A stretch of DNA of 64,000 nucleotides from an uncultured Bacteroidota bacterium (lineage in GTDB: Bacteria > Bacteroidota > Ignavibacteria > UBA10030 > UBA8401), in assembly GCA_937920105.1 (NCBI GenBank), contig CALETH010000131.1, forward strand, positions 6,400 to 70,399, written 5' to 3'. Below, in pieces: positions 3,219-34,269 of this stretch; within the stretch, counting starts at the first letter, position 1; each line of letters begins with the position of its first letter. The position numbers and the translations under genes are program-made. A model generated the notes under the pieces. That model worked only from the letters and a program-made list of their open reading frames with translations, did not search any database and was not told where the DNA came from.

Positions 3219-3255
3219 AAAAGCGAAATCCTGATAAAATCAGGATTTCGCTTTT
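3219..3255. terminator. Bidirectional rho-independent terminator between convergent genes
   Basis: aaaagcgaaatcctgat-aaa-atcaggatttcgctttt: perfect 14-bp stem flanked by A-run and T-run. Confidence 0.8.
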
Positions 3256-3276: not shown

Positions 3277-4434
3277 TTACAAAAAAGCATCTTTCATTTT
3301 TTCAAAAATACTTTTGTTTTTCGTTTTTTCTTCTTCGGTAGGAGAGATGTGTTCGCTGAGAGAAAGTTCTTTGAGCAATTCTTTTTCTCGTGTATTTATT
3401 TTTGTGGGAACCCAAATTTGTACGCGAATGAGTTGGTCTCCTTTACCATAACTATTTAAATGAGGGATTCCTTTTTCTCGCATGCGTAACATTTTTCCTG
3501 CCATTGTTCCGGAATCTATTTTTACTTTTGCTCTTCCGGTGAGGGTTGGTACTTCGATTTCTGTTCCCATCACTGCATCGGGAAAACTAATCAGTGCATT
3601 GTAAATAACGTCATTCCCATTGCGGATAAAATGTTCATGTTTTTCTTCTTCAAATTCTACAATCACATCACCTGCAGAACCACCACGTCTTCCCACATTT
3701 CCTTCACCACGCAAGGTGAGGTAATGTCCTTCAGAAACTCCTGCTGGTACGTTGACTTTGATTGTTGTTTCTCCGTGTTCGCGACCTTCGCCTTTACAGG
3801 TGGTGCAAAAATCTTTTATCACTTGTCCCGTGCCGCTGCAATGAGCACAGGTGGCAATGTTTACAAATTGTCCGAAGACAGAACGGGAGACTTGACGAAT
3901 TTCTCCGGTACCTTCACAGTATTGACAGGTTGATTTTGCTGAACTGGATTTTGCTCCGCTTCCATGGCAGGTATGGCATTTTACCCATTTTTTAATTTTG
4001 ATTTTCTTTTCTACTCCGGTTGCAATTTCTTCTAAGGTGAGTTTGAGTCGAACTTTGAGGTTGGAGCCGGGTTCTCCGGTTTCTCTACTACGACGTTGCT
4101 GCTGCCTACCACCGCCAAAAACTTCTTCAAAAATTGAGCCGCCGAAAATATCTCCGAAGTTAGAAAAAATATCGTTAACGTTGGTGTAGGTGTGGGTATC
4201 ACCGCTTCGCATTCCTTCGTGTCCGAATCTATCGTAGCGTTGTTTTTTATCGGCATCACCTAATACTTCGTATGCTTCGGTTGCTTCTTTAAATTTTTCT
4301 TCGGCTTCTTTATTATCCGGATTTCTATCAGGATGATATTGCATTGCAAGTTTGCGGTACGCTTTTTTTATTTCATCAGATGAAGCGGTACGGGAAACGC
4401 CTAATATTTCGTAGTAATCTTTTTTTGTTGGCAT
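3277..4434 (-). CDS. dnaJ: Molecular chaperone DnaJ
   Basis: J-domain (YYEILGV...HPDRN), G/F region, four CxxCxGxG zinc-finger repeats. Confidence 0.97.
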
Positions 4435-4460
4435 AAATTTTTTGTATTATCGTGTTTTAT

Positions 4461-4494
4461 AGACCTGTGAGGTTTTAAAAACCTCACAGGTTTT
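4461..4494. repeat. Palindromic repeat, AGAC-stem-TTTAAAA-stem-GTCT family (stem variant B)
   Basis: agacctgtgaggttttaaaaacctcacaggtttt; same architecture as copies at 7003, 18874, 24535, 26224, 41968, 59298. Confidence 0.8.
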
Positions 4495-4500
4495 ACTGTA

Positions 4501-5073
4501 TTATTCTGTTTTTTCTTTTGCAACAATAACTTTTGCGTGTCTGATAACTTTATTGTGGAGAAAATATCCTTTTTCTACTTCTTCGATAATTGTGTTTGGT
4601 GCAACATCTTCTTTTGGCATTTGCATGAGTGCATCGTGAAATTCCACGTTAAATTCTTTACCAACGGTTTCCATTGTTTTTACTCCTTGGCTTTCTAACA
4701 CTTTCATAAATTTGGAAAGTATCATTTCTACGCCTTTGTAAAATGGGTCTGAAGAAAGTGTTTGTCCCGCTTTGAGTGAACGATTGAAATCATCAATCAA
4801 TGGTAGAAATTGTGTGATGACATTTTCACTGGCAAATTTTGCCAGTGTTGCAATATCATTTTCCATGCGGCGTTTGTAGTTTTCAAATTCTGCTGCTTTG
4901 CGAAGAAGTTGGTCTTTTACTTGTGCAGTTTGTTTTTCACATTCAGATAATTGTTTTTTTACTGTTTCTACTTCTGAAAGTTCTTCTACAATTTCTTGGT
5001 CTTTCATGACATCGTTTGATGGTGGTTGTGGTGTTTCGGTATTTCCATTTATTTTTTCTTCTTCTGTTTGCAT
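4501..5073 (-). CDS. grpE: Nucleotide exchange factor GrpE
   Basis: 190 aa, GrpE-like coiled-coil plus C-terminal domain; sits between hrcA and dnaJ as in the canonical hrcA-grpE-dnaK/dnaJ arrangement. Confidence 0.9.
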   Translation of the reverse strand: MQTEEEKINGNTETPQPPSNDVMKDQEIVEELSEVETVKKQLSECEKQTAQVKDQLLRKAAEFENYKRRMENDIATLAKFASENVITQFLPLIDDFNRSLKAGQTLSSDPFYKGVEMILSKFMKVLESQGVKTMETVGKEFNVEFHDALMQMPKEDVAPNTIIEEVEKGYFLHNKVIRHAKVIVAKEKTE

Positions 5074-5090
5074 TGGTTTCTCCGTTGAGA

Positions 5091-5576
5091 TTATCGTAAT
5101 TTAAAATCATTTTTAATAAAATCGGGATAGTGTCCACCTAATTCCCAATTATCTTTTGTGTTATTTTCATTTCCTGTAAATGGTGAAGTGTTATTGTTTT
5201 TCCATGTAAATATTTGAGTTTCATCCCAGTTTTCTGTTTCAAGGTATACAATAGCATTATTCCAGTATAATTTAGAAAGTAGATTTTCAAATTTTATTAA
5301 CCAATCTTTCCAGTCATCATATACTTCTTTATACGATGCTCCAAAAGTAATGACTTGGTCTTTATATAATCCATCTCCAAATTTTACTGTTGGTGTATTA
5401 AACATTAGTTTTGTGATTTGTGGATATTCATCTTCTGTCGGTAATTCATCAATAATCATTTTATTTAATCGATGAAAAAGTAATCTATCGTTATCAAGAT
5501 GAATATTTCCACCATAATTATATCTTTTTCCAATAATTCTTCCATAGACAAAAGATTGCCATCCCATACATACCAT
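5091..5576 (-). CDS. Hypothetical Trp-rich protein inserted between hrcA and grpE
   Basis: 161 aa ORF, no recognisable motif; ATG at 5576; tightly packed in the heat-shock gene string. Confidence 0.5.
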   Translation of the reverse strand: MVCMGWQSFVYGRIIGKRYNYGGNIHLDNDRLLFHRLNKMIIDELPTEDEYPQITKLMFNTPTVKFGDGLYKDQVITFGASYKEVYDDWKDWLIKFENLLSKLYWNNAIVYLETENWDETQIFTWKNNNTSPFTGNENNTKDNWELGGHYPDFIKNDFKLR

Positions 5577-5655
5577 CCTTTAAATATTTTTATAGATAAA
5601 ACGCTGATTAATTAAGATTTTTCTTGGTAATAAATTTTACATTGTTAAATAAAGT

Positions 5656-5725
5656 ATCCCGACTTGGCGGGATGAAATTTTCTCGAAATGGATTCCCGCT
5701 AAAAACGTGCAGGAATAACACTTTT
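5656..5725. repeat. REP-like palindromic elements (tcccg-N6-cggga and gattcccgc...gcaggaat)
   Basis: gtatcccgacttggcgggatgaaa and ggattcccgctaaaaacgtgcaggaat; related copies at 13016, 34270, 34326, 47071, 50529, 57358. Confidence 0.7.
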
Positions 5726-5776
5726 CTTGTTTTAATTTTTACATCATATAAATCTTAATAATCCTAAAAATCATAA

Positions 5777-6826
5777 TTATATATTTTTATTTTCTTTTAA
5801 CATTATTGAAATCGTTTTTGCAACATAATCTACTAAGGGAATCATTTTAGAATAATTCATTCGTTTTGTACCGAGAATTCCAATTGTTCCACTGATATCT
5901 CCAACATTATAAGTGGATGTTACAATACTGTATTGTTGAAATTTTTCATCATTATTTTCTTTTCCGATTGTAACGGTAATTGGTTGTGTACTATTTTTAA
6001 GTTCGCTTTTTTCTAATACGTGGACAATGATTTCTTCATTATCTAATAATTCTATCACGCCGCGAAAATTTTCCATGGTTTCAAATTCCGGTTGGGTGAT
6101 AATTTCGGATGTTCCACCTATGTGGACTTTTTCTCGTGTTCGTGTTTCATCAAATAATTTATCAACGGATTCTATAAAAAGTCGGATGAGTCCTGTTTCT
6201 TCATTGTGAACATCTTTCACGCGTGCAGAAAATGTTTCGCGAATTTTTTTGAGTGGAAGTCCTGCTAATCGTTCATTCAGCATTCTGCTGACATCTTCTA
6301 ATTTTGTACGTGGTATTTCTGCGTGAACTTCCATCATAATGGTTTTTACTACTCCGCTGCGAATGGAGAGGATGACCATAATGTGTGTGCTGGATATTTG
6401 CACGAGTTCTAATTTTTCAAAAATTCCTGTGGTGATTTTTGGTGCTAAGACAATTCCTAATTGATGAGAAATTGTTCCTAAAATTTTGGATGCGACTCGT
6501 AAAAGTTCTTCGCGTTCTGCTTCTATGGTTAATTGTTTTTGGATGACTGATTGTTCTTGTTGGGAAAGTTGTTCTACTTCCATCAGTGCATCCACATAAA
6601 AGCGATACCCTTTATCCGTTGGTATTCTTCCGGCGGATGTGTGTGGGTGATTGATGTATCCCAACTCTTCCAAATCGGACATAACGTTTCGCACGGTTGC
6701 GGGACTTAATCCGATTTCTTTATTTTTGGAAATAAATCGCGAACCCACGGGCGTTGCTGTATGGATAAAACTATGGATGATGTTTTTTAAAATTGTTTTT
6801 TCTCGTTCGTTGAGAATTTCTTGCAT
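5777..6826 (-). CDS. hrcA: Heat-inducible transcription repressor HrcA
   Basis: N-terminal winged-helix (ATPVGSRFISKNKEIGLSPATVRNVMSDLEELGYI) and HrcA C-terminal domain. Confidence 0.93.
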   Translation of the reverse strand: MQEILNEREKTILKNIIHSFIHTATPVGSRFISKNKEIGLSPATVRNVMSDLEELGYINHPHTSAGRIPTDKGYRFYVDALMEVEQLSQQEQSVIQKQLTIEAEREELLRVASKILGTISHQLGIVLAPKITTGIFEKLELVQISSTHIMVILSIRSGVVKTIMMEVHAEIPRTKLEDVSRMLNERLAGLPLKKIRETFSARVKDVHNEETGLIRLFIESVDKLFDETRTREKVHIGGTSEIITQPEFETMENFRGVIELLDNEEIIVHVLEKSELKNSTQPITVTIGKENNDEKFQQYSIVTSTYNVGDISGTIGILGTKRMNYSKMIPLVDYVAKTISIMLKENKNI

Positions 6827-7002
6827 AGTTATCTTTTAGAAATTTTTCATAGTATTGCTTTTCAAAATACTCATTTTCGTAAAGTTTTACAATGATGAAT
6901 TATTTGAGCCGCTTGTAACCCTGCCAGAGTTTAATTCGCCTGTGGCGAACTGGCAGGGTTTTTAAATTCATGATTTTGTTTTTTGAATCCTTCTATAGTT
7001 TT

Positions 7003-7035
7003 AGATTTGTCAAGTTTTAAAAACTTGACAAATCT
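7003..7035. repeat. Palindromic repeat, AGAC/AGAT-stem-TTTAAAA-stem family (variant A)
   Basis: agatttgtcaagttttaaaaacttgacaaatct; the upstream hairpin aaccctgccag...ctggcagggtt (6918-6962) shares its 5' arm with the copy at 18858. Confidence 0.8.
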
Positions 7036-7046
7036 GCTTCTATTTT

Positions 7047-7109
7047 TTCACACCCCTAACCCCTCTCTCCAACACACAAGTCCATCGCTGCAGAGGGGAA
7101 TATTCATGC
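7047..7109. repeat. Repeat family P (cacacccctaacccctctctcc...cagaggggaat)
   Basis: Inverted copy of the element at 10735-10795; related copies at 16290-16375 and 26817-26862. Confidence 0.75.
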
Positions 7110-7141
7110 TCAAAATCCTGTTCATCGTTTAATCCTACAAA

Positions 7142-9787
7142 TCATGGTTTTATTTTTCTAAATCCCAACTCACCCTCAGTTTTCATAAAGCACTCTATAG
7201 TATCTCCATCAACAAGATTTCCGGAAAGAATTTCTTCGGAAAGTTTATCTATAATATGTTTTTGGATAACACGTTTTAACGGTCTTGCTCCAAAACTTGG
7301 GTCGTAACCGAGACGAGCGAGCCAATCTTTTGCTTCATCAGCAATGAGCAATTTCATATTTTTTTGCTCTAATAATTTGCGTACGTGTTTCAATTGAATA
7401 TCAACAACTTTTTCAATATCACTTTTGTTGAGTGGTTTGAAAAGAATTGTTTCATCTATGCGATTCAAAAATTCCGGACGAATGGTTTGACGTAATAGTT
7501 GATATAATTGCGAACGCAAATCTCCAACCATGTTTTCCCAATCTTCATCAGTTTGTAATTCGTTAATTTTTTCTTGAATATATTGCGAACCAAGATTGGA
7601 TGTCATGATAATAATGGTATTTTTAAAATTCACAGTTCGTCCTTGTGAATCCGTTAAACGTCCTTCATCTAAAACTTGTAAAAGAATATTAAACACTTCA
7701 GGATGTGCTTTTTCAATTTCATCTAACAATACAACGGAATACGGTTTGCGACGTACGGCTTCTGTGAGTTGTCCGCCTTCTTCATATCCAACATATCCCG
7801 GAGGTGCACCGATGAGGCGGGAGACGGCAAATTTTTCCATGTACTCGCTCATATCAATTCGCACCATAGCATTTTCATCATTAAATAAAAATTCTGCTAA
7901 CGAACGTGCGAGTTCTGTTTTTCCAACACCGGTTGTTCCCAAAAAGATGAATGAACCGATGGGACGTTTTTCATCTTGCAATCCAGCACGGCTGCGGCGA
8001 ATGGCGGAGGCAACGGCATGTACGGCTTCTTCTTGATTTACCATGCGTTCGTGAATTTTTTCTTCGAGATGTAATAATTTTGTGCGTTCGCTTTCCAACA
8101 TTCGTGTTACGGGAATTCCTGTCCACTTGGAAACAATTTCTGCAATATCTTCTGCATCAACTTCTTCTTTCAACATTTTTTGTTCTTTTTGAACTTCTGT
8201 TAATTTGGAGGTTGCGTCTTTCAATTTTTTTTCGATTGTGGTGATTGTTCCGTACCGGAGTTCCGCAACTTTTCCTAAATTTCCTTCGCGTTCAAATTGT
8301 TCGGCTTGCGTGCGTACGTTTTCAATTTCTTCTTTCATGGAGCGAATTGATTGAATGAGATTTTTTTCATTTTGCCAATGGGCTTTTAATTCCGAACGGC
8401 GTTGATTGAGTTCTGCTAATTCTTTTTCAATGTGATGAATACGATTTTCACTCGCTTTTTTGTCGGCTTCATCGGCATACTCTGCGGTGATTTCTCGTTT
8501 CACTGCTTCGCGTTCAATTTCCAATTGTTTGATTTTTCTTTCGATGTCATCCAATTCTTCCGGCATAGAATCTATTTCAATACGCAATTTGGAAGCGGCC
8601 TCATCCACCAAATCAATTGCTTTATCCGGAAGAAATCTATCGGAAATATATCGAGAACTTAATTGTGCAGCGGCAACAATTGCTCCATCGGTGATGCGTA
8701 CGCCGTGATGCACTTCGTAGCGCTCGCTCAATCCACGCAAAATAGAAATTGTATCTTCCACGCTTGGTTCATCAACAAGAACAGGTTGGAAGCGGCGTTC
8801 CAATGCCGGGTCTTTTTCAATATACTTTCGGTATTCATCCAACGTAGTTGCACCGATGGCACGCAAATCTCCGCGGGCAAGTGCTGGCTTGAGCATGTTT
8901 GCTGCATCAACCGCACCTTGTGCTGCACCGGCACCAACAAGTGTGTGAAGTTCATCAATAAATAAAATTATTTCTCCGTTGGAATTTTCTACTTCTTTTA
9001 AAACTGCTTTCAATCGTTCTTCAAACTGTCCGCGAAAACTTGCACCGGCAATAAGTGCTGCCATATCCAATGCAACGATGCGTTTGGTTTTGAGATTTTC
9101 GGGAACGTCGCCTTGAATAATGCGATGGGCAAGTCCTTCAGCGATTGCGGTTTTACCAACGCCGGGCTCGCCGATGAGTACGGGATTATTTTTTGTGCGT
9201 CGTGAAAGTACTTGCAACACGCGTCGGATTTCTTCATCTCGTCCGATGACGGGGTCGAGTTTTCCTTTGCGTGCAAGTTCATTTAAATCTCTTCCGAATT
9301 TTTGGAGTGATTGATATTTATCTTCAGGATTTTGGTCTGTTACTCGTTGCGAACCGCGTACTTCTTTTAATGCTTTGAGTACGCCATCTTTGTTCACACC
9401 TTGGTCTATCAAAATTTTTGCTGCGGGATTTTGTTTTTGTTCCAACAGTGCAAGGAGTAAATGTTCTGTGCTGATGTATTCGTCTTTTAATTTTTCTGCT
9501 TCTTTTTGTGCTTGCTCAAATATTTTATTGAGTGTGTTGGAAAGATATTGATTTCCCGCATTTTGTATTTTTGGAAGTTTTTCTACCAGTTCGTTGACTT
9601 TTACTTTTATATAATTAGTATTTGCTCCCAATTTTTGCAAAAGGGGAATAACGATTCCTTGTGCATCTTGCACTAAGGCAGCAAGCAGATGTTCCGGCTC
9701 TATTGCTTGATTTCCGTAACTTGTCGCAATTTCTTGTGCGTTCTGTACGGCTTCTTGTGATTTGATTGTGAATTTATTGAGGTTCAT
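7142..9787 (-). CDS. clpB: ATP-dependent chaperone ClpB (AAA+ disaggregase)
   Basis: 881 aa, two AAA modules with Walker A ([16 protein letters not shown]), coiled-coil middle domain, ClpB N-domain. Confidence 0.97.
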
Positions 9788-9820
9788 AATAGTTTTGGGT
9801 TATGAGTTTTCAGTTGTGAG

Positions 9821-10564
9821 TTATGAGTATTGAGATTGAAATCGTGATTTTCCAATAGTCGGTGGAATAGTGTCTCGTTCTATCATAAGAATATCTTGAT
9901 TAAATATTACCATACAAATTGCTCCACCATAATTACAGTCATTAGGGTCTCTTACACTAGTCCATACAATTCCTTGGAAATTATTTTTGAAAGCATGTTT
10001 TGCTATAATTTGTGTTAAAGGATAAACAGAATCGTTTTTTGTATATATTTTATCCTTAAAAAAAATTTCTTCACTGTTATAGATATTATATTTTTTTATT
10101 AATCGAAAAAAAGCATTGTTTGTATGTCTTAAATCCAAAATTGGGGCATCAAATTTAAGATACTTCTCTGTTAATGCCCACATAGCATCTTTTTTAACAT
10201 ACTTCATCATTTCTTCTAATGAACATCCTTCTTCTTTATGAAGTTCTTTTGTTATTTCAGTTTTAGATATATAAAAGTCAAAAGCCCAATATGAAACAGG
10301 TTTGTTCTCAAGAGCAAAGCGTCCATTTAATGAGGGAAAAAATAACTTTGGATTATTAGGAATATCTGTTTCTTCTCTTCCATAAATTTTTTGTGGTTTG
10401 TCATAATCAAAAGGCTCTTTGGGATTAACTTCGTAGTATCTTGAATGATACCATAGTTTTTCAGAAAGAGTTTCTCTAGACCATTTATTTTGATGTTTCT
10501 TTATATCGTTCCAATCTTCTGTTGTAATGCGGCTAAATAACTCATCCCAATTTTCTTCTATCAT
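9821..10564 (-). CDS. Hypothetical protein with RES-domain-like C-terminal half (orphan, no Xre partner)
   Basis: 247 aa. NGRFALENKPVSYWAF, a downstream Glu, and GIVWTSVRDPNDCNYGGAICMVIF resemble the R/E/S motif blocks of RES NAD+-glycohydrolase toxin domains; about 90-aa N-terminal extension. Confidence 0.45.
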   Translation of the reverse strand: MIEENWDELFSRITTEDWNDIKKHQNKWSRETLSEKLWYHSRYYEVNPKEPFDYDKPQKIYGREETDIPNNPKLFFPSLNGRFALENKPVSYWAFDFYISKTEITKELHKEEGCSLEEMMKYVKKDAMWALTEKYLKFDAPILDLRHTNNAFFRLIKKYNIYNSEEIFFKDKIYTKNDSVYPLTQIIAKHAFKNNFQGIVWTSVRDPNDCNYGGAICMVIFNQDILMIERDTIPPTIGKSRFQSQYS

Positions 10565-10627
10565 ACCTTATTCTTTCAATAAATATTTTTGTTATAATTT
10601 AATTATCGTTTTTCTCTTCACTGTTTT

Positions 10628-10795
10628 TGACACACCCCCGACCCTCCCAACACACAAAAATAACCAACACATCCCGTAAAAAGCACGGGACACAAAAAGC
10701 GTGCAGAGGGACTTTATGTACTTCTGGGCGTTTTTCATTCCCCTCTGTAGCGATGGTTTAAGCGAAGGAGAGAGGGGTTAGGGATGTGTCCTATT
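10628..10795. repeat. Composite repeat family P element
   Basis: gacacacccccgaccctcccaacacacaaaaa...gtgcagagggac...cattcccctctgtagcgatgg...ggagagaggggttagggatgtgtcc; its 3' part is the reverse complement of 7047-7109. Confidence 0.75.
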
Positions 10796-10807
10796 GAGTG
10801 TTACAAC

Positions 10808-10833
10808 AAAGGCGAGGATGACCTCGCCTTTTG
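10808..10833 (-). terminator. Rho-independent terminator downstream of dnaK
   Basis: aaaggcgagg-atgac-cctcgccttttg, GC-rich stem plus T-run. Confidence 0.75.
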
Positions 10834-10842
10834 TTATTGTTT

Positions 10843-12792
10843 TTATTTTTTCTTTTCTTTTTTGTCATCATCAATTACTTCGTACTCGGCATTTTCTACT
10901 TTTTTCTCATCTTTTTGCTGAGTTGTAGATTGCTGTCCGCCTTCAGGTTGTGCTCCTGCGGTTGCTCCTTGTTGTTTTGCGGCTTCGTACATTTTTGTTG
11001 ATGCTTCATTCCAAATTGCATTCAACGCATCCATTTTAGATTTTATTTCTGTTGTGTTGTTTGTTTTAATTGCTTCTTCTAATGCTGTTGCTGCTGTTTC
11101 TAATTTGGATTTTGTGTCTGCATCAATCTTATCTTCCATTTCTTTCATTTGTTTTCGAGTAGAGAAGACAAGATTATCTGCTTGATTTTTTGTTTCTATT
11201 TCTTCTTTGCGTTTTGCATCATCTGCTGCATGCGCTTGTGCATCTTTTTTCATTCGTTCAACTTCTTCTTTACTCAATCCGGAAGAAGAGGTAATGCGGA
11301 TACTTTGTTCTTTATTGGTTGCTTGGTCTTTTGCTGTTACATGCAGCATTCCGTTAGCATCAATATCAAGTATAACTTCTATTTTTGGTACCCCACGTGG
11401 TGCTGGTGGAATTCCATCCAAATGAAAACGTCCGAGCGTACGATTATCTACTGCCATTGGACGTTCACCTTGAAGAATGTGAACTTCTACTGATGTTTGA
11501 CTATCTGCTGCTGTACTAAACACTTCACTTTTTCGCGTTGGGATGGTTGTGTTTGCATCAATTAATTTTGTCATCACACCACCAAGAGTTTCAATTCCCA
11601 AAGAAAGCGGTGTAACATCTAATAAGAGAACATCAGTAACATCTCCGGCAAGAACACCACCTTGAATTGCTGCTCCGATTGCAACTACTTCATCAGGATT
11701 TACTCCTTTGTGTCCTTCTTTTCCAAAAATGTCTTTTACAAGTTGTTGAATGCGCGGCATACGTGTCATACCACCAACCAAAATTACTTCATCAATTTGA
11801 CTTGGAGAAACACCGGCATCTTTTAATGCTTTTTCTACTGGTGGAATACATCGTTTTACTAAATCATCAACAAGTTGTTCAAATTTTGCACGCGTTAAAT
11901 TCATGTTTAAATGTTTTGGACCTTCGGATGTTGCGGTTACGAAGGGAAGATTGATTTCTGTTTGGTTGAGTTGTGAAAGTTCAATCTTTGCTTTTTCTGC
12001 TGCTTCACGAAGACGTTGTAACGCCATTGGGTCTTTTAACAAATCAATGCCTTCTTGTTTTTTAAATTCTCCGGCAATGTATTCTACAAGACGTTGGTCA
12101 AAATTATCTCCACCAAGATGTGTATCTCCGTTGGTAGATTTTACTTTGAAATTTCCTGTTCCTTCAACTTCGTATAATTCAAGAACGGAAATATCAAATG
12201 TTCCACCACCCAAATCGAACACCGCAACTTTTGCATCTTTTCCTTTTTTATCTAAACCGTAAGCAAGTGCAGCAGCGGTTGGTTCGTTCACAATACGGCG
12301 AACGTTGAGTCCGGCAATTTCTCCGGCTTCTTTTGTTGCTTGACGTTGTGCATCATTAAAATATGCGGGAACAGTGATAACGGCTTCTGTTATTTTTTGT
12401 CCGAGATAATCTTCTGCAGTTTGTTTCATTTTTTGTAAAATCATCGCAGAAATTTCCGGCGGAGAATACATACGGTCATCAATTTTTACACGGGCAGTAT
12501 TGTTATCTCCTGCAATAACATTGTAGGGAACGAGTTTCATTTCGTCATTCACCTCGTTCATGAAACGTCCCATAAATCTTTTGATGGAATAGATGGTGTT
12601 GTGTGGATTAGTTACGGCTTGTCGTTTTGCTGCATGACCAACTAAACGTTCTCCGTTTTTTGCAAATCCAACCATTGATGGTGTTGTGCGAAATCCTTCT
12701 GCGTTTGCAATGACAACGGGGTCATTTCCTTCCATAACGGCAACTACTGAGTTTGTTGTTCCCAAATCTATTCCGATAATTTTTCCAGCCAT
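10843..12792 (-). CDS. dnaK: Molecular chaperone DnaK (Hsp70)
   Basis: 649 aa, [16 protein letters not shown], Hsp70 signatures throughout. Confidence 0.98.
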
Positions 12793-13015
12793 TGTTTTCT
12801 CCTGTGAGATAAATTGTTATTATAATAGATAAACTTTTCTTATAACTTCATCAAATACCGTACCAATAAAAATATGCGAAATTGAATTAAAAATGATGTT
12901 TTTTAAATTTAATTTGATGACAAAATGTCATTCAATAAAGATTTCGCCAATTTGACAAGTGTTGACTATGGATTATGGAAATATTATAGATTATTTTAGA
13001 TGAATATTTTACAGC

Positions 13016-13044
13016 GTCATTCCCGCATGTTTTTAGCGGGAGTC
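13016..13044. repeat. REP-like palindrome gtcattcccgc-N-gcgggagtc
   Basis: Almost identical to 34270-34300; directly abuts the birA start. Confidence 0.75.
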
Positions 13045-13057
13045 TATAAAAAAAAAT

Positions 13058-16824: not shown

Positions 16825-18849
16825 ATGAAAAACAAATTTTTCATATATTATATAATTGCATTATTAATAATGCCAATAACCAGTCCCGCTCAATGGGCAA
16901 AAAATATAGGTGGTAATGCTAGTGATAGAGGTAGTAGTATTGCTAATGATGGTAATGGAAATGTGTATATAACAGGGTCTTTTCGTGGGACAGCAGATTT
17001 TGATACAGGTCCAGGAACGACAAACTTGATTGGGAAAGGTTGGACTGACATATATTTTGCAAAATACGATGTTTCCGGTTTATTATTGTGGGCAAAAAGT
17101 GTTGGGAGTACTAATTCTGATGGAGGTAATAGTATTGCTGTCGATGGTAGTGGAGATGTGTATGTAACAGGTTCCTTTGAAGGAATGGCAGATTTTGACC
17201 CTGGAGTAGGAACAACAAATTTGCCTTGGGTTGGTGGTGACGATATCTTTTTTGCAAAATACAAATCTAGTGACGGTTCGCTTATTTGGGCAAAAAGTAT
17301 TGGTGCTGCTAATGGTGCTTCCGAGGGTGGTAATAGTATTGCCATAGATGGAAGTGGAAATGTCTACATAACAGGTATATTTTATGGAACAGTAGATTTT
17401 GACCCAGGGCCAGGAACAACAAATTTAACAAGTGCTGGATATGATATATTTTTTGCGAAATATAGTGGGAATGATGGTTCACTTATATGGGCAAAAAGTG
17501 TTGGTGGTACTACTGATAATGATAAAGGTAATAGTGTTGCTATAGATGGTAGTGGAAATGTCTATATAACAGGACATTTTTTTGGCACAGTAGATTTTGA
17601 CCCAGGTTCAGGAACTGCAAATTTAACGAGTGTTGGTAATTATGATATCTTTTTCGCGAAATATAGTGGTAATGACGGTTCGCTTATATGGGCAAAAAGT
17701 ATTGGTGGTGCTAGTATTGATTATTGTAGCGATATTGTTGTAGATGGTAGTGCAAATGTATATTTAACTGGATATTTTGATTATACAGCAGATTTTGACC
17801 CCAGTGCTGGAGTCGCAAATTTGACAAGTGTTGGTTATGACATTTTTTTTGCCAAATATAACTCTACGGGTTCGCTTTTATGGGTAAAAGGTATAGGGGG
17901 TGGTGGTACTGATGGTAGCGCTAGTATAGATATAGATGGAAGTGGAAATGTGTATGTAACAGGTTCTTTTCAAGGAGCGGTAGATTTTGACCCTGGAGTA
18001 GGAACGACAAGTTTAACTAGTGTTGGTGGTTCCGATATCTTTTTTGCGAAATATAATTCTACTGGTTCATTTGTGTGGGAAAAAAAAATTGGAAGTGGCG
18101 GTGACGATTTTGGTACTAGTCTTGCCTTAGATGGCAGTGGAAATGCCTATACAACAGGATATTTTAATGGAACAGCCGATTTTGACCCATCAACCAATGC
18201 AGCCGATACATTAAAATTAACCAGCAGTGATGATGATATCTTTTTTGCAAAATATAGAACTATTGATGGTCTTCTTCCCGTAGAACTTACCTCATTTACA
18301 GCAACATCAAAAAATAGTGCTGTAGAGTTATCATGGAGTACAGTGAGTGAAATAAATAATTTTGGATTTGAAATTGAGAAAGCAGAAATCCATAATCAAT
18401 CATCAGAAAAACAGTGGAAAAAAATTAGTTTTGTACAGGGAAACGGAACAAGCAATATCCAACACCATTACACATTTATTGATAAAAATGTTACTACAGG
18501 AAAATTTATATATCGATTAAAACAAATTGATATGGATGGAAAGTTTACGTACAGCGAAGAAATAGAAGGAAATGCAGAAATTCCAAAAGAGATAACATTA
18601 TCCCAAAATTATCCAAACCCCTTTAATCCTGTAACAACAATTAATTATGAAATCCCACAAACCGGAAAAGTGTATTTAAAAGTGTACAATGTGTTAGGAG
18701 AAGAAGTCGCAACACTGGTGAATGGAATGCAGGAAGCGGGAAGATATTCTACACAATTTGACGCATCGAAATATTCTTCTGGAATATATTTTTATAAACT
18801 CACATCGAATAATTATATATTAGTAAAATCAATGGTATTGGTGAAATAA
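16825..18849 (+). CDS. Secreted SBBP-repeat beta-propeller protein with T9SS C-terminal sorting domain
   Basis: Signal peptide; about 10 repeats of GNSIAxDGSGNVYxTGxFxGTxDFDPGxGTTNLTSxGxxDIFFAKY (SBBP-like); C-terminal Por_Secre_tail-like domain (NYPNPFNP...GIYFYKL). Confidence 0.8.
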   Translation: MKNKFFIYYIIALLIMPITSPAQWAKNIGGNASDRGSSIANDGNGNVYITGSFRGTADFDTGPGTTNLIGKGWTDIYFAKYDVSGLLLWAKSVGSTNSDGGNSIAVDGSGDVYVTGSFEGMADFDPGVGTTNLPWVGGDDIFFAKYKSSDGSLIWAKSIGAANGASEGGNSIAIDGSGNVYITGIFYGTVDFDPGPGTTNLTSAGYDIFFAKYSGNDGSLIWAKSVGGTTDNDKGNSVAIDGSGNVYITGHFFGTVDFDPGSGTANLTSVGNYDIFFAKYSGNDGSLIWAKSIGGASIDYCSDIVVDGSANVYLTGYFDYTADFDPSAGVANLTSVGYDIFFAKYNSTGSLLWVKGIGGGGTDGSASIDIDGSGNVYVTGSFQGAVDFDPGVGTTSLTSVGGSDIFFAKYNSTGSFVWEKKIGSGGDDFGTSLALDGSGNAYTTGYFNGTADFDPSTNAADTLKLTSSDDDIFFAKYRTIDGLLPVELTSFTATSKNSAVELSWSTVSEINNFGFEIEKAEIHNQSSEKQWKKISFVQGNGTSNIQHHYTFIDKNVTTGKFIYRLKQIDMDGKFTYSEEIEGNAEIPKEITLSQNYPNPFNPVTTINYEIPQTGKVYLKVYNVLGEEVATLVNGMQEAGRYSTQFDASKYSSGIYFYKLTSNNYILVKSMVLVK

Positions 18850-24405: not shown

Positions 24406-24416
24406 GAAATTTTTAG

Positions 24417-24523
24417 AGAAACGTTCCCTCTATTTTGAAAAAAATCCAAAAGATGGAAAATTGTGGAAGAAAATAAAAGACGAATTTCTTAAAGCAAAAA
24501 ACTATAAGAGAATAGAAAAATAG
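24417..24523 (+). other. Degenerate duplicate of the 3' end of the antitoxin gene 24614..24841
   Basis: gaaacgttccctctattttgaaaaaaatccaaaagatggaaaattgtggaagaaaataaaagacgaatttcttaaagcaaaaaactataag aligns at about 85% with 24751-24841 (…RSLYFEKNPEGGKLWEEIKDEFLKGKKL). Confidence 0.75.
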
Positions 24524-24534
24524 AAACTGAAATA

Positions 24535-24567
24535 AGATTTGTCTAGTTTCAAAAACTTGACAAATCT
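24535..24567. repeat. Palindromic repeat AGAT-stem-TTTAAAA-stem-ATCT (variant A)
   Basis: agatttgtctagtttcaaaaacttgacaaatct. Confidence 0.8.
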
Positions 24568-24613
24568 AATCATAGTAATCCTATAAATTAAGGTCAAATC
24601 AAGAGGCAAATGT

Positions 24614-24841
24614 ATGCAAACACATCTTCGTAATAAAATAAATAAATTGAGCGTTTCTGAAAAAATTTTACTCGTTGAAGAACTTTGGGATGATATTGCT
24701 CGTAAGAATGAAACTTTTGAATTATCACAAAGTCAAAAAAGTGAATTAGAGAAACGCTCACTCTATTTTGAAAAAAATCCAGAAGGTGGAAAATTGTGGG
24801 AAGAAATAAAAGACGAATTTCTTAAAGGCAAAAAATTATAA
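24614..24841 (+). CDS. Putative addiction-module antitoxin (TIGR02574-like) paired with ParE-type toxin
   Basis: 75 aa, LSVSEKILLVEELWDDI...SQSQKSELEKR...NPEGGKLWEEIKDEF matches the 'putative addiction module component' family pattern. Confidence 0.7.
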   Translation: MQTHLRNKINKLSVSEKILLVEELWDDIARKNETFELSQSQKSELEKRSLYFEKNPEGGKLWEEIKDEFLKGKKL

Positions 24842-25171: not shown

Positions 25172-26218
25172 ATGCCCGAGTTTCTTACCAATATTTTTGG
25201 AAAAACAATAATTGTTCACATTATCATGGGAGCAGTACCGTTATTATTTATACTTCCGTACGCTCTTGTAGTTATTTATGTGGAAATGAAACTTTCTTCC
25301 CACATGCAAAACCGTGTGGGATATATGAGAACCGGTTGGCATGGAACACTGCAACCTTTTGCAGATATTTTCAAACTCTTACAAAAAGAAAATATTGTTC
25401 CAGCAGAAGCAGATAAAATTTTATTTTCATTAGCACCATTTATAGTTTTTATCGGAATGTATGCTGCGTACGCAGTGCTGCCTTTTGGAAGCGGATATGT
25501 TGGCAGCGAAATGGAAATCGGAATTTTTTATCTACTCGCAGTTTCTTCATTAGTGGTTGTAGGAATTTTGATGGCTGGCTGGTCATCCAATAATAAATGG
25601 TCATTATTAGGAGCAATGCGTTCTGTTGCACAAATTGTAAGTTACGAAATTCCGGCAGCATTAGCATTGCTTGGAGTGGTGATGCTTGCCGGAACAATGA
25701 ATACCGAAATGTTAAGTGCAATGCAATCCGGTGGAATGCACGAATGGTTTATTTTTGGCGGAACATTACCATTGTGGAAAAAATTTACAATCATTCCCTT
25801 TATGTTTATAATTTTTTTGGTGTATCTCGTTTCATCAATGGCAGAGGTAAATCGGACACCATTTGATTTGCCCGAAGCAGAATCTGAATTAGTGCAGGGT
25901 TACAATACAGAATACAGCGGAATGAAATTTGCTATTTTTTATTTAGCAGAATATGGAAATTTATTTTTAATTTCTGCTATTGCAGTAATTGTATTTTTTG
26001 GCGGATATACAAGTCCGTTTGGAAAATTTCTTTCCGGAGGTGTGTGGGATGTTTTTTGGTTTATCACCAAAGGAATGTTGTTAGTACTTATTAATATTTG
26101 GATTCGTTGGACTCTTCCTCGTTTGCGAGTTGACCAACTCATGTACGTTTCATGGAAAGTCCTTACACCATTTGCTTTGGTTGGAATTATTGTTATCGGA
26201 TTTATTTTGGTTGTGTAA
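25172..26218 (+). CDS. nuoH: NADH-quinone oxidoreductase subunit H
   Basis: 348 aa polytopic membrane protein with ND1/NuoH signature (SEMEIGIFYLLAVSSL, RTPFDLPEAESELVQGYNTEYSG). Confidence 0.96.
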   Translation: MPEFLTNIFGKTIIVHIIMGAVPLLFILPYALVVIYVEMKLSSHMQNRVGYMRTGWHGTLQPFADIFKLLQKENIVPAEADKILFSLAPFIVFIGMYAAYAVLPFGSGYVGSEMEIGIFYLLAVSSLVVVGILMAGWSSNNKWSLLGAMRSVAQIVSYEIPAALALLGVVMLAGTMNTEMLSAMQSGGMHEWFIFGGTLPLWKKFTIIPFMFIIFLVYLVSSMAEVNRTPFDLPEAESELVQGYNTEYSGMKFAIFYLAEYGNLFLISAIAVIVFFGGYTSPFGKFLSGGVWDVFWFITKGMLLVLINIWIRWTLPRLRVDQLMYVSWKVLTPFALVGIIVIGFILVV

Positions 26219-26223
26219 GTTTT

Positions 26224-26256
26224 ATATTTGTCAAGTTTTTAAAACTTGACAAATCT
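26224..26256. repeat. Palindromic repeat stem-TTTTTAAAA-stem (variant A)
   Basis: atatttgtcaagtttttaaaacttgacaaatctgtat. Confidence 0.8.
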
Positions 26257-26277
26257 GTATGATATAACTTTATAAGT

Positions 26278-32684: not shown

Positions 32685-33139
32685 TGAAAATCTCAGAAAA
32701 TATCGTTCCACTTTCTCCGGAAGAAATTGAAACTTTACAAAAAGACAAAAGAAATACTCTTATAGCAGTTCCAATAGTAGGAATAGTTTTTGTAATAGTT
32801 TTATATTTCATTTTTGATGAAAACATTTTGTGGTTTTATACAGTGAGTGGGAGTATCCTTTTATTATTTTCTTTTTTCATGTGGAAAACAACTCAAAAAA
32901 TTCGTAAAGATATTCAAGAAGGAATGAAAAGGGTAATTGTTGGTACGATTGATAATAAATCTGCTCAAAAATCAGCAACCACTAATAATAAATCCAGCAC
33001 CAATACTAATTACTATTTGTGGCTCGGTGAAGAAAAATTTTCCATCAATTCAGATACTTATTATAAATGTGAAAAAGAACAAAAAGTAGAAATTCATATA
33101 ACACCACACTCTCAACATATATATAAAATTATTGTATGA
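32684..33139 (+). CDS. Small 2-TM membrane protein, paralogue 2
   Basis: Starts MKISENIVPLSPEE; same architecture as the upstream gene with a low-complexity insertion (KSATTNNKSSTNTNYY); ends KVEIHITPHSQHIYKIIV. Confidence 0.5.
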   Translation: MKISENIVPLSPEEIETLQKDKRNTLIAVPIVGIVFVIVLYFIFDENILWFYTVSGSILLLFSFFMWKTTQKIRKDIQEGMKRVIVGTIDNKSAQKSATTNNKSSTNTNYYLWLGEEKFSINSDTYYKCEKEQKVEIHITPHSQHIYKIIV

Positions 33140-34242
33140 ATATTGTAATGCTATTGTTTTGTATTATCGCTGGATTTTTTATTTTTTTTGGATGTTCTAA
33201 AGCCATGAAAAAATCTTCATCATTTCCTTCTATAGAACAAGAAACATTAGAAGAACGAGAAAAGGGCTTTCAACAATATCCCAACGCATTATATCCAATA
33301 GAAAAAAATGGAAAATGGGGATATATGAATCGTGCAACAAAAATTATTATTCAACCACAATATGAAAACGTGGAAGATTTTTTTGAAGGAAGAGCAAAAA
33401 TCCAAAAAAATGGAAAGTATGGGTATATTGATAGTACTGGAAAAGAAATTATTTTAGCACAATTTGAAAAGGCAGAAAATTTTTTTGAAGGATTTGCAAA
33501 AATAAAAAAAAATGAGAAATACGGCTTTATTGATAAAACAGGAAAAGAAATTATCTCACCACAATTTGAAGATGCGGGAAATTTTTCTGAGGGCTTTGCT
33601 GCTGTAAAAATAAATGGTAAAACCGGATTTATAAATAGAGAAGGAAAAATAATTATCCAACCGCAATTTTTACGTGCAGTGTATGTTTCGCAATTTTCTG
33701 AAGGACTTGCTTCAGTCTATACCTCGGAAGAAGAAGGTGGTGGATATATTGATAAAAAAGGTGAGTGGATTATTCAACCAAATTTTATTGAAGTTGGTCC
33801 TTTTCGTAATGGACTTGCCAGAGTTGCTGTTCAAGAAGATAAAATACTGACTGGCTTTCTTGATAAAGGTGGTCTATTTGTTATCGCACCATCATTTACT
33901 TTTGCATGGGATTTTTCTGAAAATTTTGTAACGGGTTGGACATTAAGCGAAGACCGAACGAAAAAAATCTGGAAATGTATGGATACACAAGGCAATATTG
34001 TTCTTGATAATTTACCATATCGAACAGTTGGTGCATGTGTGGGAGGATTTATTCCTATACAAAATTCTGAAATGAAGTGGGGATTTATGGATATCACTGG
34101 AAAAGAAATTATTCCACCGCAATTTTCAGGAATAAATCATTTTAAAAATGGACTTGCGAGAATGGAAATAGGAGATTTCTCTCGTGGACATACGTCTATT
34201 GTTTATATTAATCCAACAGGCAAAATAGTTTGGCAACCGTAA
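33136..34242 (+). CDS. WG-repeat (KWG-like) lipoprotein
   Basis: Lipoprotein signal ...FFGCSK; at least 7 repeats of G[KY][WY]G[FY]I[DN]xTGKEIIxPQFExxxxFxEGxA. Confidence 0.7.
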   Translation: MNIVMLLFCIIAGFFIFFGCSKAMKKSSSFPSIEQETLEEREKGFQQYPNALYPIEKNGKWGYMNRATKIIIQPQYENVEDFFEGRAKIQKNGKYGYIDSTGKEIILAQFEKAENFFEGFAKIKKNEKYGFIDKTGKEIISPQFEDAGNFSEGFAAVKINGKTGFINREGKIIIQPQFLRAVYVSQFSEGLASVYTSEEEGGGYIDKKGEWIIQPNFIEVGPFRNGLARVAVQEDKILTGFLDKGGLFVIAPSFTFAWDFSENFVTGWTLSEDRTKKIWKCMDTQGNIVLDNLPYRTVGACVGGFIPIQNSEMKWGFMDITGKEIIPPQFSGINHFKNGLARMEIGDFSRGHTSIVYINPTGKIVWQP

Positions 34243-34269
34243 TATGATTAAGTTATTCAAAAAAACAAT

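Follow-up and report, generated by a model that had tools for sequence, protein, structure and literature searches.

A divergent RES-domain gene in the dnaK–clpB spacer of an uncultured bacterium of the Ignavibacteria/Bacteroidota group

We analyzed a 64-kb stretch of DNA (hereafter, the window) from an uncultured, AT-rich bacterium belonging to the Ignavibacteria/Bacteroidota group. The first-pass annotation of this DNA proposed one contiguous Hsp supercluster with two foreign-looking insertions, one of them a solitary RES gene under the control of the HrcA repressor.

Two chaperone units and their promoters

ORF calls and Pfam/NCBIfam searches agree with the proposed gene order: dnaK, a 247-aa ORF, clpB, hrcA, a 161-aa ORF, grpE and dnaJ follow each other on the minus strand (seven of seven ORFs; Table 1). 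The count of "all five major Hsp genes" plus their repressor was correct as to the single strand but not as to the number, which is four chaperone genes and hrcA; groES and groEL were not found within the 64-kb window. The neighborhood of these genes in the window consists of housekeeping genes (birA, coaX and peptidase M3).

Table 1. Genes and sequence elements of the chaperone region, with positions in the window.
Feature	Position	Strand	Remarks
σ54-type -24/-12 promoter-like element, dnaK	12851..12865	-	TGGTACGGTATTTGA, 73 nt before ATG
dnaK (Hsp70), 649 aa	10843..12792	-	Pfam HSP70, 877 bits
dnaK terminator hairpin	10808..10831	-	AAAGGCGAGG-N4-CCTCGCCTTT; also after dnaK in relatives
GC-rich REP-like elements, dnaK/RES-like spacer	10620..10800		hairpin at 10668-10694
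RES-like gene, 247 aa	9821..10564	-	N-terminal extension of ~75 aa, then RES domain (~residues 75-228)
clpB gap with CA-rich leader, 33 nt	9788..9820	-	terminator absent between RES-like gene and clpB
clpB disaggregase, 881 aa	7142..9787	-	Pfam Clp_N, AAA, AAA_lid_9, AAA_2, ClpB_D2-small
clpB/hrcA junction	6925..7110		REP-like 7049-7101; 40-nt palindromic repeat 6997-7036; hairpin ~6930-6975
Putative σ70-like hrcA promoter	6864..6892	-	TTGTAA-N17-TATTTT; aligns with TTGAC-N17-TATTTT of relatives
hrcA repressor, 349 aa	5777..6826	-	TIGR00331, 326 bits; Pfam HrcA, 182 bits
Hairpin element, hrcA/161-aa ORF spacer	5688-5722		TTCCCGC-N9-GCGGGAA; 1 of 3 window copies
Terminator-like hairpin, hrcA/161-aa ORF spacer	5656-5673		both hairpins within 5656..5722
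Trp-rich ORF, 161 aa (probably 158 aa, start 5567)	5091..5576	-	between hrcA and grpE
grpE, 190 aa	4501..5073	-	Pfam GrpE, 161 bits
Palindromic hairpin repeat, grpE/dnaJ spacer	4455..4494		repeat families D9, I8
dnaJ, 385 aa, type I with Zn-finger domain	3277..4434	-	Pfam DnaJ, DnaJ_CXXCXGXG, DnaJ_C
Bidirectional terminator hairpin after dnaJ	3219..3255		hairpin

The comparison of loci indicated that dnaK–clpB and hrcA–grpE–dnaJ stay separate in the relatives of this bacterium. The order hrcA–grpE–dnaJ is common to the window and these relatives, but in the window this unit is joined to dnaK–clpB, with hrcA following clpB on that strand after 315 nt, and an extra ORF lies between hrcA and grpE. 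The terminator hairpin 3' of dnaK is kept in relatives (loci L064-L071 and L074), and one REP-like block of the dnaK/RES-like spacer (10737-10788) recurs in inverted orientation at 7049-7101. The proposal of one supercluster read as a single operon fails, since terminators and REP-like hairpins lie between its parts and the units are apart in relatives. The region is composed of two ancestral chaperone units, dnaK–clpB and hrcA–grpE–dnaJ, which were juxtaposed in a lineage-specific manner.

The σ54-type element upstream of dnaK presents two mismatches to TGGCAC-N5-TTGC, including a change of the -12 GC to GA, and is not significant alone in the window. At the equivalent position, 12 relatives carry a σ54-type site with zero or one mismatch, relative to 1.2% of random 200-nt windows. 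Chaperone genes dependent on σ54 have been reported in Bacteroidota (PMC12316311), and a σ54-type promoter-like element precedes the dnaK of the window. No bEBP gene (GAFTGA motif) was found in the window. These results suggest that dnaK carries a σ54-type promoter in this clade, with a predicted function. Conservation among relatives also points to a σ70-like promoter for hrcA, devoid of CIRCE.

The scan for CIRCE (TTAGCACTC-N9-GAGTGCTAA) yielded no match with up to three mismatches in the entire 64 kb, which confirms its reported absence upstream of hrcA and dnaK. The best match in the window has mismatches at 5 of 18 positions and is located elsewhere than the promoter regions. In the loci of clade relatives that we examined, a single match was obtained with up to four mismatches; it has four, lies ~2 kb upstream of dnaK in L071 and was taken as a chance occurrence. 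As a positive control, the same scan recovered canonical CIRCE with 0-2 mismatches in ~34 other loci, in each case upstream of hrcA, and the hrcA operons sampled in Firmicutes and other phyla possess CIRCE, in contrast to the hrcA of the window. The hrcA promoter is overlapped by a perfect 6-bp inverted repeat, AGTATT-N9-AATACT (6851-6871), which is dissimilar to CIRCE and not conserved in relatives; by a rough estimate, a 6-N9-6 repeat of this kind is expected by chance about once per five AT-rich 300-nt spacers. The position of hrcA on the same strand shortly after clpB and this repeat over its promoter are the observations that would favor a RES toxin placed under HrcA/CIRCE heat-shock repression in one Hsp supercluster operon. 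However, CIRCE is absent at up to four mismatches in the window, terminators and hairpins part dnaK, RES-like/clpB and hrcA from one another, and dnaK presents the putative σ54-type promoter. This model is largely refuted in silico and we consider it extremely unlikely.

A divergent RES-domain protein without partner gene

The C-terminal half of the 247-aa protein had been noted to match RES motif blocks. The search against the Pfam profile RES (PF08808) returned a match (E = 1.2e-4), yet its score of 22.6 bits is marginally below the gathering threshold of 23.2 bits (by 0.6 bits), and it covers only residues 174-226 and profile positions 94-143. An exhaustive phmmer search identified 74 relatives, mostly full length. 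The family is rare, and its proteins measure 220–250 aa. PF08808 was matched by 53 of the 55 aligned homologues (E up to 0.01), and the full-length homologues clear the cut-off over profile positions ~14-152. The homologues P0005, P0011, P0013 and P0028 score 35-43 bits (P0005, 34.9; P0013, 41.1; P0028, 42.9), and P0004, which is 41% identical to the window protein (E = 1e-44), reaches 29.4 bits across profile positions 22-141. The RES domain of the window protein spans ~residues 75-228; the family assignment stands but its restriction to the C-terminal half does not. When the 55 sequences are aligned, R82 and E103 never vary, and Y92, S203 and R205 are conserved in at least 90% of them. The Arg, Glu and Ser of RES domains are thus retained, together with one Tyr and a second Arg, all with a putative placement in the active site.

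No solved RES structure was found by sequence with the family profile. We built an AF2 model of the protein (pLDDT 92.1, pTM 0.88), and the first six PDB matches given by Foldseek are all RES toxins: NatT, MbcT, the RES toxin of P. putida and VPA0770 (E from 3.7e-4 to 0.13; next match, E = 0.85), with modest TM-scores of 0.34-0.57. The best of these is NatT (E = 3.7e-4; probability 0.99), with the full 247-aa query set against a 250-aa target. The Pfam matches, the conserved R/E/S residues and the fold matches establish, at the family level, that the 247-aa ORF is a genuine but very divergent RES-domain relative.

NatT (PA1030; PDB 8qnq/8qnl), from the NatR–NatT RES–Xre module of Pseudomonas aeruginosa, is like the window protein a "long" RES with extra N-terminal structure. 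The active-site residues of NatT are R82, Y93 and S184; R82 and R186 help to coordinate the active-site phosphate, and E104 takes part in coordinating the phosphate at the NatR-NatT interface (PMC11535050). The R…Y…E…S-x-R pattern of the window family is similar, a correspondence drawn from this published residue list; sequence identity to NatT is ~10%. NatT is paired with NatR/Xre in an autoregulated bicistron, whereas the window gene has no antitoxin and lies in a dnaK–clpB context. The classical type II toxins MbcT, P. putida Res and VPA0770 (NAD+ phosphorylase/NADase) share the RES fold and PF08808 with the window protein, but they are ~145-185 aa long, lack the ~75-aa N-terminal extension and are always accompanied by an upstream Xre/MbcA antitoxin.

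The earlier observation that the gene lacks an Xre antitoxin was upheld. No Xre/COG5642-type partner (MbcA/ParS/NatR-like) was detected in the window, including the 278-nt upstream spacer and the downstream side, and from dnaK to the RES-like gene the coding (minus) strand has no ORF of at least 50 aa. The one 50-aa ORF listed for this spacer (10527-10679) is encoded on the other strand and extends over the REP-like repeats and the start of the RES-like gene. No partner gene is conserved across four further syntenic loci (L048, L049, L052 and L138), in which the RES-like neighbors are KAP NTPase, small TM protein or DUF2442 genes; the small TM protein occurs also in RES-less loci. Antitoxin-type domains were not found in any of the 55 family members. 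The window gene does not qualify as part of a type II RES–Xre module, as an adjacent antitoxin gene is absent.

Stand-alone RES proteins without antitoxins, named aRES, defend against phages through NAD+ depletion; by definition they are 300-600 aa long and combine RES with PF18870 at the N-terminus, and they occur in defence islands (bioRxiv 10.64898/2026.01.28.702374). Their description reduces the novelty of a solitary RES protein. The window protein is similar in its RES domain, extra N-terminal region and lack of an operonic antitoxin, and a role as NAD+-depleting effector is plausible. It differs by its length (247 aa), by its location in a chaperone locus and by PF18870, which was not detected in a Pfam search even at E up to 1. 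Length and domain content exclude it from aRES as defined, and PADLOC did not match it.

Accessory cargo of a variable spacer

The GC-content of the RES-like gene (0.290) and of the 161-aa ORF (0.278) is lower than the mean of the window genes (0.339; sd 0.036). Several further genes of the window are equally low, and this is a weak sign of foreign origin. The order dnaK–[cargo]–RES-like–clpB was also observed in L048, L049/50/51, L052 and L138. The four closest homologues of the window protein (31–41% identity) are all encoded between dnaK and clpB, and identity at these syntenic loci reaches 73–84% for DnaK and ClpB. In this sub-branch, five RES-like genes have enough flanking sequence, and each of them lies on the same strand between dnaK and clpB. 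In the window and L048 only 33-35 nt separate the gene from the clpB downstream of it, and in the others a single small gene intervenes. The clpB-linked members cluster together in the family tree. Contrary to the initial suggestion of a foreign insertion, the gene is not a recent foreign acquisition, since it occupies the same site in five divergent lineages.

Among the dnaK–clpB loci of the clade that were sampled through clpB, 0 of ~23 carry the RES-like gene, the closest relatives of the window included, which indicates that the chaperone locus can do without this gene. The dnaK–clpB gap of relatives ranges from ~0 to 3 kb and contains diverse cargo (KAP NTPase, DUF2442 pairs, DUF559 and serA-like genes). 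The window has lost a small TM gene that is usual at this site, and REP-like elements occupy the gap. The next family member outward in the tree, P0008, is not near chaperone genes, and neither is P0013; the neighbors of P0008 are TumE, HVO_A0114, Fic and HTH genes. As cargo of a variable spacer, the RES-like gene is accessory, patchily distributed and fast-evolving.

The 161-aa ORF, described as Trp-rich and indeed containing 7 Trp, likely starts at Met4 (5567), as its homologues do, and its stop is 17 nt before grpE. It had been suggested for comparison with immunity-protein families. It was unmatched in Pfam, NCBIfam and PADLOC, and its AF2 model (pLDDT 74.5) yielded a best PDB match at E = 0.08 and a best viral match at E ~0.01, to uncharacterised proteins, so that an identity as SMI1/KNR4 or another immunity-type protein is unsupported by any family or fold match. 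Five relatives have a hrcA–grpE junction without this ORF. Its homologues are found in unrelated contexts, partly rich in IS/RM, and never co-occur with RES-like genes elsewhere. The insertion between hrcA and grpE is confined to this genome, and the 161-aa ORF is an unrelated accessory gene.

Possible roles of the RES-like gene

The RES-like gene might encode a chaperone-coupled stress effector: an enzyme induced with clpB upon proteotoxic stress, which would deplete NAD(P)+ and cause dormancy, or would ADP-ribosylate a chaperone or client in a ParT-like manner, with DnaK/ClpB controlling its folding or activity. The five same-strand genes at or near clpB, their grouping in the family tree, the missing antitoxin and the precedent of NatT, by which RES toxins are able to drive persistence (PMC11535050), are consistent with such coupling. 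However, the gene is missing from the ~23 sampled loci, evolves far faster than its neighbors and has members away from chaperone genes (P0008 and P0013), and the unrelated cargo suggests a permissive insertion site; we regard this coupling as unlikely. Patchy distribution and rapid divergence relative to the flanks would fit a pure anti-phage or conflict gene, an aRES-like NADase that senses infection via its N-terminal region, the chaperone site being a recombination-friendly hot spot with highly conserved flanks. The antitoxin-free phage defence of aRES, the KAP-family NTPase and DUF2442 pairs in the spacers of relatives and the gene neighborhood of P0008 agree with this possibility, but the protein departs from the aRES definition and from PADLOC models, its surroundings in the window are housekeeping genes, and mobile defence genes are not usually kept so strictly at one site across five lineages. 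A purely defensive role seems improbable to a similar degree.

The gene could also be what is left of a former toxin-antitoxin module, now decaying, inactive and without function, as the lack of an antitoxin, the score below the Pfam cut-off, the low GC-content and the replacement of the usual TM gene by REP-like elements might suggest. This is very unlikely, given that five lineages retain an intact ORF of full length although identity is 31-41%, that the catalytic-type residues are invariant or nearly so and that the fold is predicted very confidently.

The explanation that we favor, with about even confidence, combines the two juxtaposed chaperone units with a RES-like gene that is accessory cargo of the dnaK–clpB spacer and encodes a putative NAD(P)+-consuming enzyme, the 161-aa ORF being unrelated. 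The first unit would run from dnaK, driven by its σ54-type promoter, through the variable spacer to clpB, and the second, hrcA–grpE–dnaJ, would be expressed from the σ70-like promoter without CIRCE. By analogy with NatT and MbcT, the 247-aa protein is predicted to be a phosphorylase or glycohydrolase of NAD(P)+. The 33-nt gap without terminator suggests that the gene shares a transcript with clpB. Points against the favored explanation are the REP-like elements and terminator-like hairpin that precede the gene, the Pfam score below the threshold, the lack of a sequence match to solved RES structures and of a PADLOC match, and the absence of the gene from the ~23 sampled loci. Because no antitoxin gene is present, the protein may be held in check by the extension at its N-terminus or by some factor whose gene lies elsewhere; autoinhibition through the extension is a guess. 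Once triggered, the RES-like protein would serve as an effector of growth arrest or abortive infection.

Family and fold of the RES-like protein

The 247-aa ORF located between dnaK and clpB encodes a real but divergent RES-domain protein, whose membership is established at the level of its family. The protein itself scores marginally under the cut-off of the Pfam RES profile PF08808 (22.6 bits for a cut-off of 23.2), and only residues 174-226 match. Using this protein as query, a word-indexed search of 5.8 billion proteins retrieved the query alone, and an exhaustive phmmer search of 1.84 billion cluster representatives yielded 74 relatives, mostly of 210-270 aa and aligning over their full length. 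We found that 53 of the 55 aligned members of the family match PF08808 (best E-value 3.6e-11). The close full-length homologues exceed the cut-off, with profile positions ~14-152 corresponding to residues ~75-228 of the window protein. Two residues are invariant in the alignment (R82 and E103) and seven others are conserved in at least 90% of the sequences (F83, Y92, T184, G198, S203, R205 and F221).

The fold predicted by AlphaFold2 from this alignment (pLDDT 92.1; pTM 0.88) was compared to the PDB with Foldseek. The six best matches were all RES toxins, covering NatT (8qnq and 8qnl), MbcT (6fkg), the RES protein of P. putida (9r35) and VPA0770 (8gug), and the seventh had an E-value of 0.85. 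Sequence and profile searches of the family against PDB sequences returned no RES match. Together, the family-level hits, the conserved residues and the fold bear out the RES match proposed in the first-pass annotation. In NatT, the active-site residues are R23, R82, Y93, S184 and N193, the active-site phosphate is coordinated by R82, Y108, Y162 and R186, and E104 is among the residues at the interface phosphate (PMC11535050). Relative to this published list, R82, Y92, E103 and S203-x-R205 of the RES-like protein appear to follow the same order with similar spacing. The first 75 residues are an extension specific to the family, made of three helices and a β-hairpin, without any Pfam assignment.

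The dnaK–clpB spacer and the accessory genes

The coordinates of the features in the window and in the related loci are listed in the table. The 278-nt spacer upstream of the RES-like gene contains no coding-strand ORF of at least 50 aa. A 50-aa ORF (10527-10679) is on the opposite strand and crosses the RES-like start and REP-like repeats. A 48-aa ORF (10592-10738) was treated as spurious because it spans REP-like repeats and a hairpin. The gene has no credible partner ORF beside it in the window, as initially reported for an Xre antitoxin.

Features of the window and of related loci (L numbers designate fetched loci of relatives; P numbers designate RES-like homologues; TM, transmembrane)
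Feature	Locus	Coordinates	Strand	Basis or description
dnaK	window	10843-12792	-	ORF calling, Pfam/NCBIfam
RES-like ORF (247 aa)	window	9821-10564	-	ORF calling
clpB	window	7142-9787	-	ORF calling, Pfam/NCBIfam
hrcA	window	5777-6826	-	ORF calling, Pfam/NCBIfam
161-aa ORF	window	5091-5576	-	ORF calling
grpE	window	4501-5073	-	ORF calling, Pfam/NCBIfam
dnaJ	window	3277-4434	-	ORF calling, Pfam/NCBIfam
hrcA promoter region	window	6892-6864		TTGTAA…TATTTT
σ54-type match	window	12851-12865	-	TGGTACGGTATTTGA, at -73 of dnaK
TGACA/TGTCA-type palindromes	window	~12918-12930		further upstream of dnaK
clpB leader	window	9788-9820		CA-rich short repeats
REP-like element	window	10737-10788; 7049-7101		~55 nt, GC-rich, CCCCTCTC…CAGAGGGG blocks
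Perfect palindromes	window	4455-4494; 6997-7036; 24529-24568; 26218-26257; 41967-42000		34-40 nt, AGATTTGTCAAGTTT-TAAA-AACTTGACAAATCT and CCTGTGAGG variant
TTCCCGC-N9-GCGGGAA hairpin	window	5688-5722; 13013-13047; 34261-34303		
Tandem coding repeats	window	16851-18270		period ~195-201 nt, 6-7 copies, in 674-aa ORF 16825-18849
Tandem coding repeats	window	33297-34125		period 102 nt (34 aa), in ORF 33136-34242
Direct repeat (89 nt)	window	24413-24501; 24746-24834		90% identity, 333 nt apart
P0004	L048			41% identity; dnaK fragment – small TM gene – KAP NTPase – RES-like – clpB
P0005	L049-51			35% identity; dnaK – small TM gene – RES-like – clpB
P0006	L052			33% identity; hsp20 – hsp20 – dnaK – DUF2442 ×2 – RES-like – clpB
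P0007	L138			38% identity; dnaK – RES-like – small TM gene – clpB
Small TM gene	L048	1233-1448		
Small TM gene	L049	1445-1675		
Small TM gene	L057	5799-6014		
Small TM gene	L058	2765-2998		
Small TM gene	L063	5500-5733		
Small TM gene	L138	2371-2646		
Small TM gene remnant	L052	~5920-6027		
dnaK fragment	L048	430-1092		C-terminal, with rearranged pieces
Split clpB	L048	3747-6402		two ORFs, 340 and 548 aa
Two hsp20 genes	L052	1837-2778		upstream of dnaK

The closest homologues, P0004-P0007, all share the position between dnaK and clpB, and the RES-like ORF is therefore not a recent foreign insertion; the DnaK and ClpB encoded on either side share 73-84% identity with those of the window. In the family tree, these clpB-linked proteins are found together in one part without forming an exclusive clade, and the genes of the outer members P0008 and P0013 are located elsewhere. 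The distribution of the RES-like gene is nonetheless patchy: hmmsearch with the family profile detected it in no locus of the 80 obtained with ClpB. The tree of ClpB N-termini places the window among RES-less loci, with L048, L049 and L052 as a group of their own. Other dnaK–clpB spacers are empty or contain a serA-like dehydrogenase, an unassigned 297-aa protein or DUF2442/DUF559-like genes. Most simply, the RES-like gene can be read as accessory and fast-evolving, and as being retained at, or exchanged by way of, a permissive site between two highly conserved genes.

A small single-pass TM protein (71-91 aa; …FHDMQ..EKQNAMETVIE…) is a conserved resident of this spacer in the clade. It was considered as an antitoxin, since rejected, in the form of the 76-aa ORF that overlaps the RES-like start in L049: it is present in RES-less spacers and absent from the window. 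The dnaK and clpB genes of L048 appear broken, which reflects either assembly errors or pseudogenisation of this locus bearing a RES-like gene and a KAP NTPase.

The 161-aa ORF between hrcA and grpE is also an accessory gene, inserted into the operon, and no tie to the RES protein was seen. Its product is probably 158 aa long, because its homologues begin at the equivalent of Met4. It has no match in Pfam, NCBIfam or PADLOC and is not SMI1/KNR4-like, so that the immunity families first suggested for it find no profile match. The word-indexed search retrieved the ORF itself and one relative, and a profile search ten relatives only. Homologues lie after serS (L001), on a 5.2-Mb contig amid IS3/IS21 elements and an EcoRI restriction-modification system (L136), and beside a TonB-dependent receptor (L137), contexts that are unconnected with heat shock. 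For five relatives, we estimate the gap between hrcA and grpE at no more than ~160 nt, which is too short for this ORF. Its AlphaFold2 model presents an α/β fold of moderate confidence (pLDDT 74.5) with no significant match in the PDB (best E-value 0.08), and uncharacterised phage proteins match it weakly (E ~0.01). The ORF ends 17 nt upstream of grpE and is itself preceded by REP-like and terminator-like hairpins. As a distant immunity or antitoxin partner of the RES protein it was rejected: the two families co-occur solely in the window.

Both small ORFs had been described as foreign-looking. They are AT-rich: their GC contents of 0.290 and 0.278 fall in the range covered by the 47 other genes of the window (mean 0.339, sd 0.036), several of which are at 0.27-0.30. 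The apparent contrast arises mainly because the neighbouring chaperone genes are GC-richer.

Organization and regulation of the chaperone loci

The order and single strand of the seven genes in the first-pass annotation match our ORF calling exactly, and dnaK, clpB, hrcA, grpE and dnaJ obtained very high Pfam and NCBIfam scores. Neither groES nor groEL lies within the 64-kb window, and the cluster therefore comprises four chaperone genes and hrcA rather than all five major Hsp genes plus their repressor. The nearest HrcA relatives, searched with one genome per species, are 56-69% identical and belong to MAGs labelled Bacteroidota, Ignavibacteriae or 'Chitinophagaceae'. In all of these, hrcA–grpE–dnaJ are contiguous, and neither dnaK nor clpB was found upstream of hrcA in flanks of ~6.7 to 10 kb. 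Metagenomes searched with the ClpB N-terminus yielded ~23 clade loci with clpB directly after dnaK on the same strand (spacer of ~0 to 3 kb), and no hrcA, grpE or dnaJ downstream of clpB in flanks of up to ~4.8 kb. In the window, the 315-nt clpB/hrcA junction contains a REP-like GC-rich element, a 40-nt palindromic repeat and another hairpin, and the hairpin at the dnaK end (AAAGGCGAGG-N4-CCTCGCCTTT) is kept across relatives. Because relatives keep the units apart, and given these junction repeats and the conserved hairpin, the presumed single supercluster is a juxtaposition of transcription units rather than one operon, two ancestral units having been joined in this lineage.

Several repeats were observed along the window. 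The two REP-like copies are inverted and bracket the RES-like gene and clpB; by eye, similar elements appear upstream of clpB in L062 and L052, and they may be recombination sites or plain REP elements. The perfect palindromes are intergenic (including grpE/dnaJ and clpB/hrcA) and are probably bidirectional terminators or REP elements; the 89-nt direct repeat adjoins copies of them. Two copies of the TTCCCGC-N9-GCGGGAA hairpin, which is not CIRCE-like, flank heat-shock genes. The Rfam scan of the cluster returned sub-threshold hairpin matches only.

The HrcA operator CIRCE was not detected in the window with up to three mismatches, in agreement with the absence first noted upstream of hrcA and dnaK; the best match in the 64 kb has 5/18 mismatches and lies away from the chaperone promoters. 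In the same scan of all fetched loci, hrcA is preceded at a distance of ~45 nt by a canonical CIRCE (0-2 mismatches) in ~34 loci, which belong to Firmicutes and other phyla. With up to four mismatches, the clade loci L003-L008, L048-L052 and L056-L081 contain none, except L071, whose four-mismatch match ~2 kb upstream of dnaK was taken as chance. Two other candidate HrcA operators were rejected because neither resembles CIRCE or is conserved in relatives: a 6-N9-6 repeat located at the promoter of hrcA, and the TTCCCGC-N9-GCGGGAA hairpin, of which a further copy (34261-34303) lies at an unrelated locus. The hrcA promoter region aligned across the clade reads TTGAC-N17-TATTTT.

Upstream of dnaK, 12 relatives (L056-58, L062-64, L070, L074-78) present a σ54-type -24/-12 element, TGGCAC-N5-TTGC, with 0-1 mismatch and 61-94 nt before the ATG, a match equalled in only 1.2% of random 200-nt windows. 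The window presents a version with two mismatches. This agrees with the σ54-dependent chaperone genes reported to be typical of Bacteroidota (PMC12316311). No gene for a σ54 activator of the GAFTGA type lies in the window; the TGACA/TGTCA-type palindromes are possible activator sites. In L052, no σ54-type site lies directly upstream of dnaK, and the promoter may be upstream of hsp20. Because CIRCE is missing from the window and from the clade loci examined and a σ54-type match precedes dnaK, the HrcA control proposed for the RES-like gene is unsupported, and we regard regulation through HrcA/CIRCE as scarcely credible. The location of hrcA beside chaperone genes does not imply CIRCE control in this clade.

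The clpB gene starts 33 nt downstream of the RES-like gene, and since this gap has no terminator, the two genes are likely to be co-expressed. The leader of clpB consists of CA-rich short repeats, also seen just upstream of clpB in L058, L059, L060 and L064 (e.g., CAAGAAC ×8 in L060 and AGCACCA repeats in L058), and may serve as an unstructured leader that enhances translation, Shine-Dalgarno usage being weak in this clade.

Possible functions and relation to known RES systems

The RES-like gene falls outside the RES–Xre toxin–antitoxin class because it has no antitoxin gene. It also differs from aRES, the stand-alone antiphage RES proteins of 300-600 aa with PF18870 (bioRxiv 10.64898/2026.01.28.702374), by its length and by the absence of PF18870. 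Since stand-alone RES proteins were described in 2026 in that study, the lack of a partner no longer makes a RES protein new; what is new here is the architecture of the subfamily and its recurrent dnaK–clpB position. PADLOC returned no matches, and our literature searches turned up nothing that connects RES domains to clpB or dnaK.

The most likely interpretation, to which we give about even chances, is that the RES-like protein would consume NAD(P)+ as a NatT/MbcT-type enzyme, would be made together with clpB, would be silenced without a dedicated antitoxin and would act as a growth-arrest or abortive-infection effector. A functional coupling of the gene to the DnaK–ClpB stress response is unlikely in our view; the shared position of P0004-P0007 speaks for it and the RES-less spacers of the clade against it. 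We consider it just as unlikely that the gene is a pure aRES-like defence gene with the locus as a hot spot, a reading favoured by the varied content of the spacers and opposed by the departures from aRES. In a more elaborate scenario, the RES branch would have become a lasting part of the DnaK–ClpB locus, as a chaperone-gated switch acting by NAD(P)+ depletion or ADP-ribosylation: made under stress with clpB, with the bichaperone system or the N-terminal extension replacing the antitoxin, it would couple proteotoxic stress directly to metabolic shutdown and dormancy. This scenario is speculative and rather improbable. An inactive relic, for which the marginal profile score of the window protein speaks and against which the invariant residues of its family speak, seems very improbable.

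So far, RES toxins have been described paired with Xre antitoxins or, in very recent work, acting alone against phages. Our results add a third configuration: a short RES subfamily that lacks an antitoxin and is retained between dnaK and clpB in divergent lineages. If this linkage is functional, it would tie proteostasis stress to NAD depletion and dormancy with no classical antitoxin involved. Should it be incidental, the locus would represent a hot spot of variable cargo inside a core chaperone locus, and would also document a rare, poorly annotated RES subfamily (74 cluster representatives in 1.8 billion).
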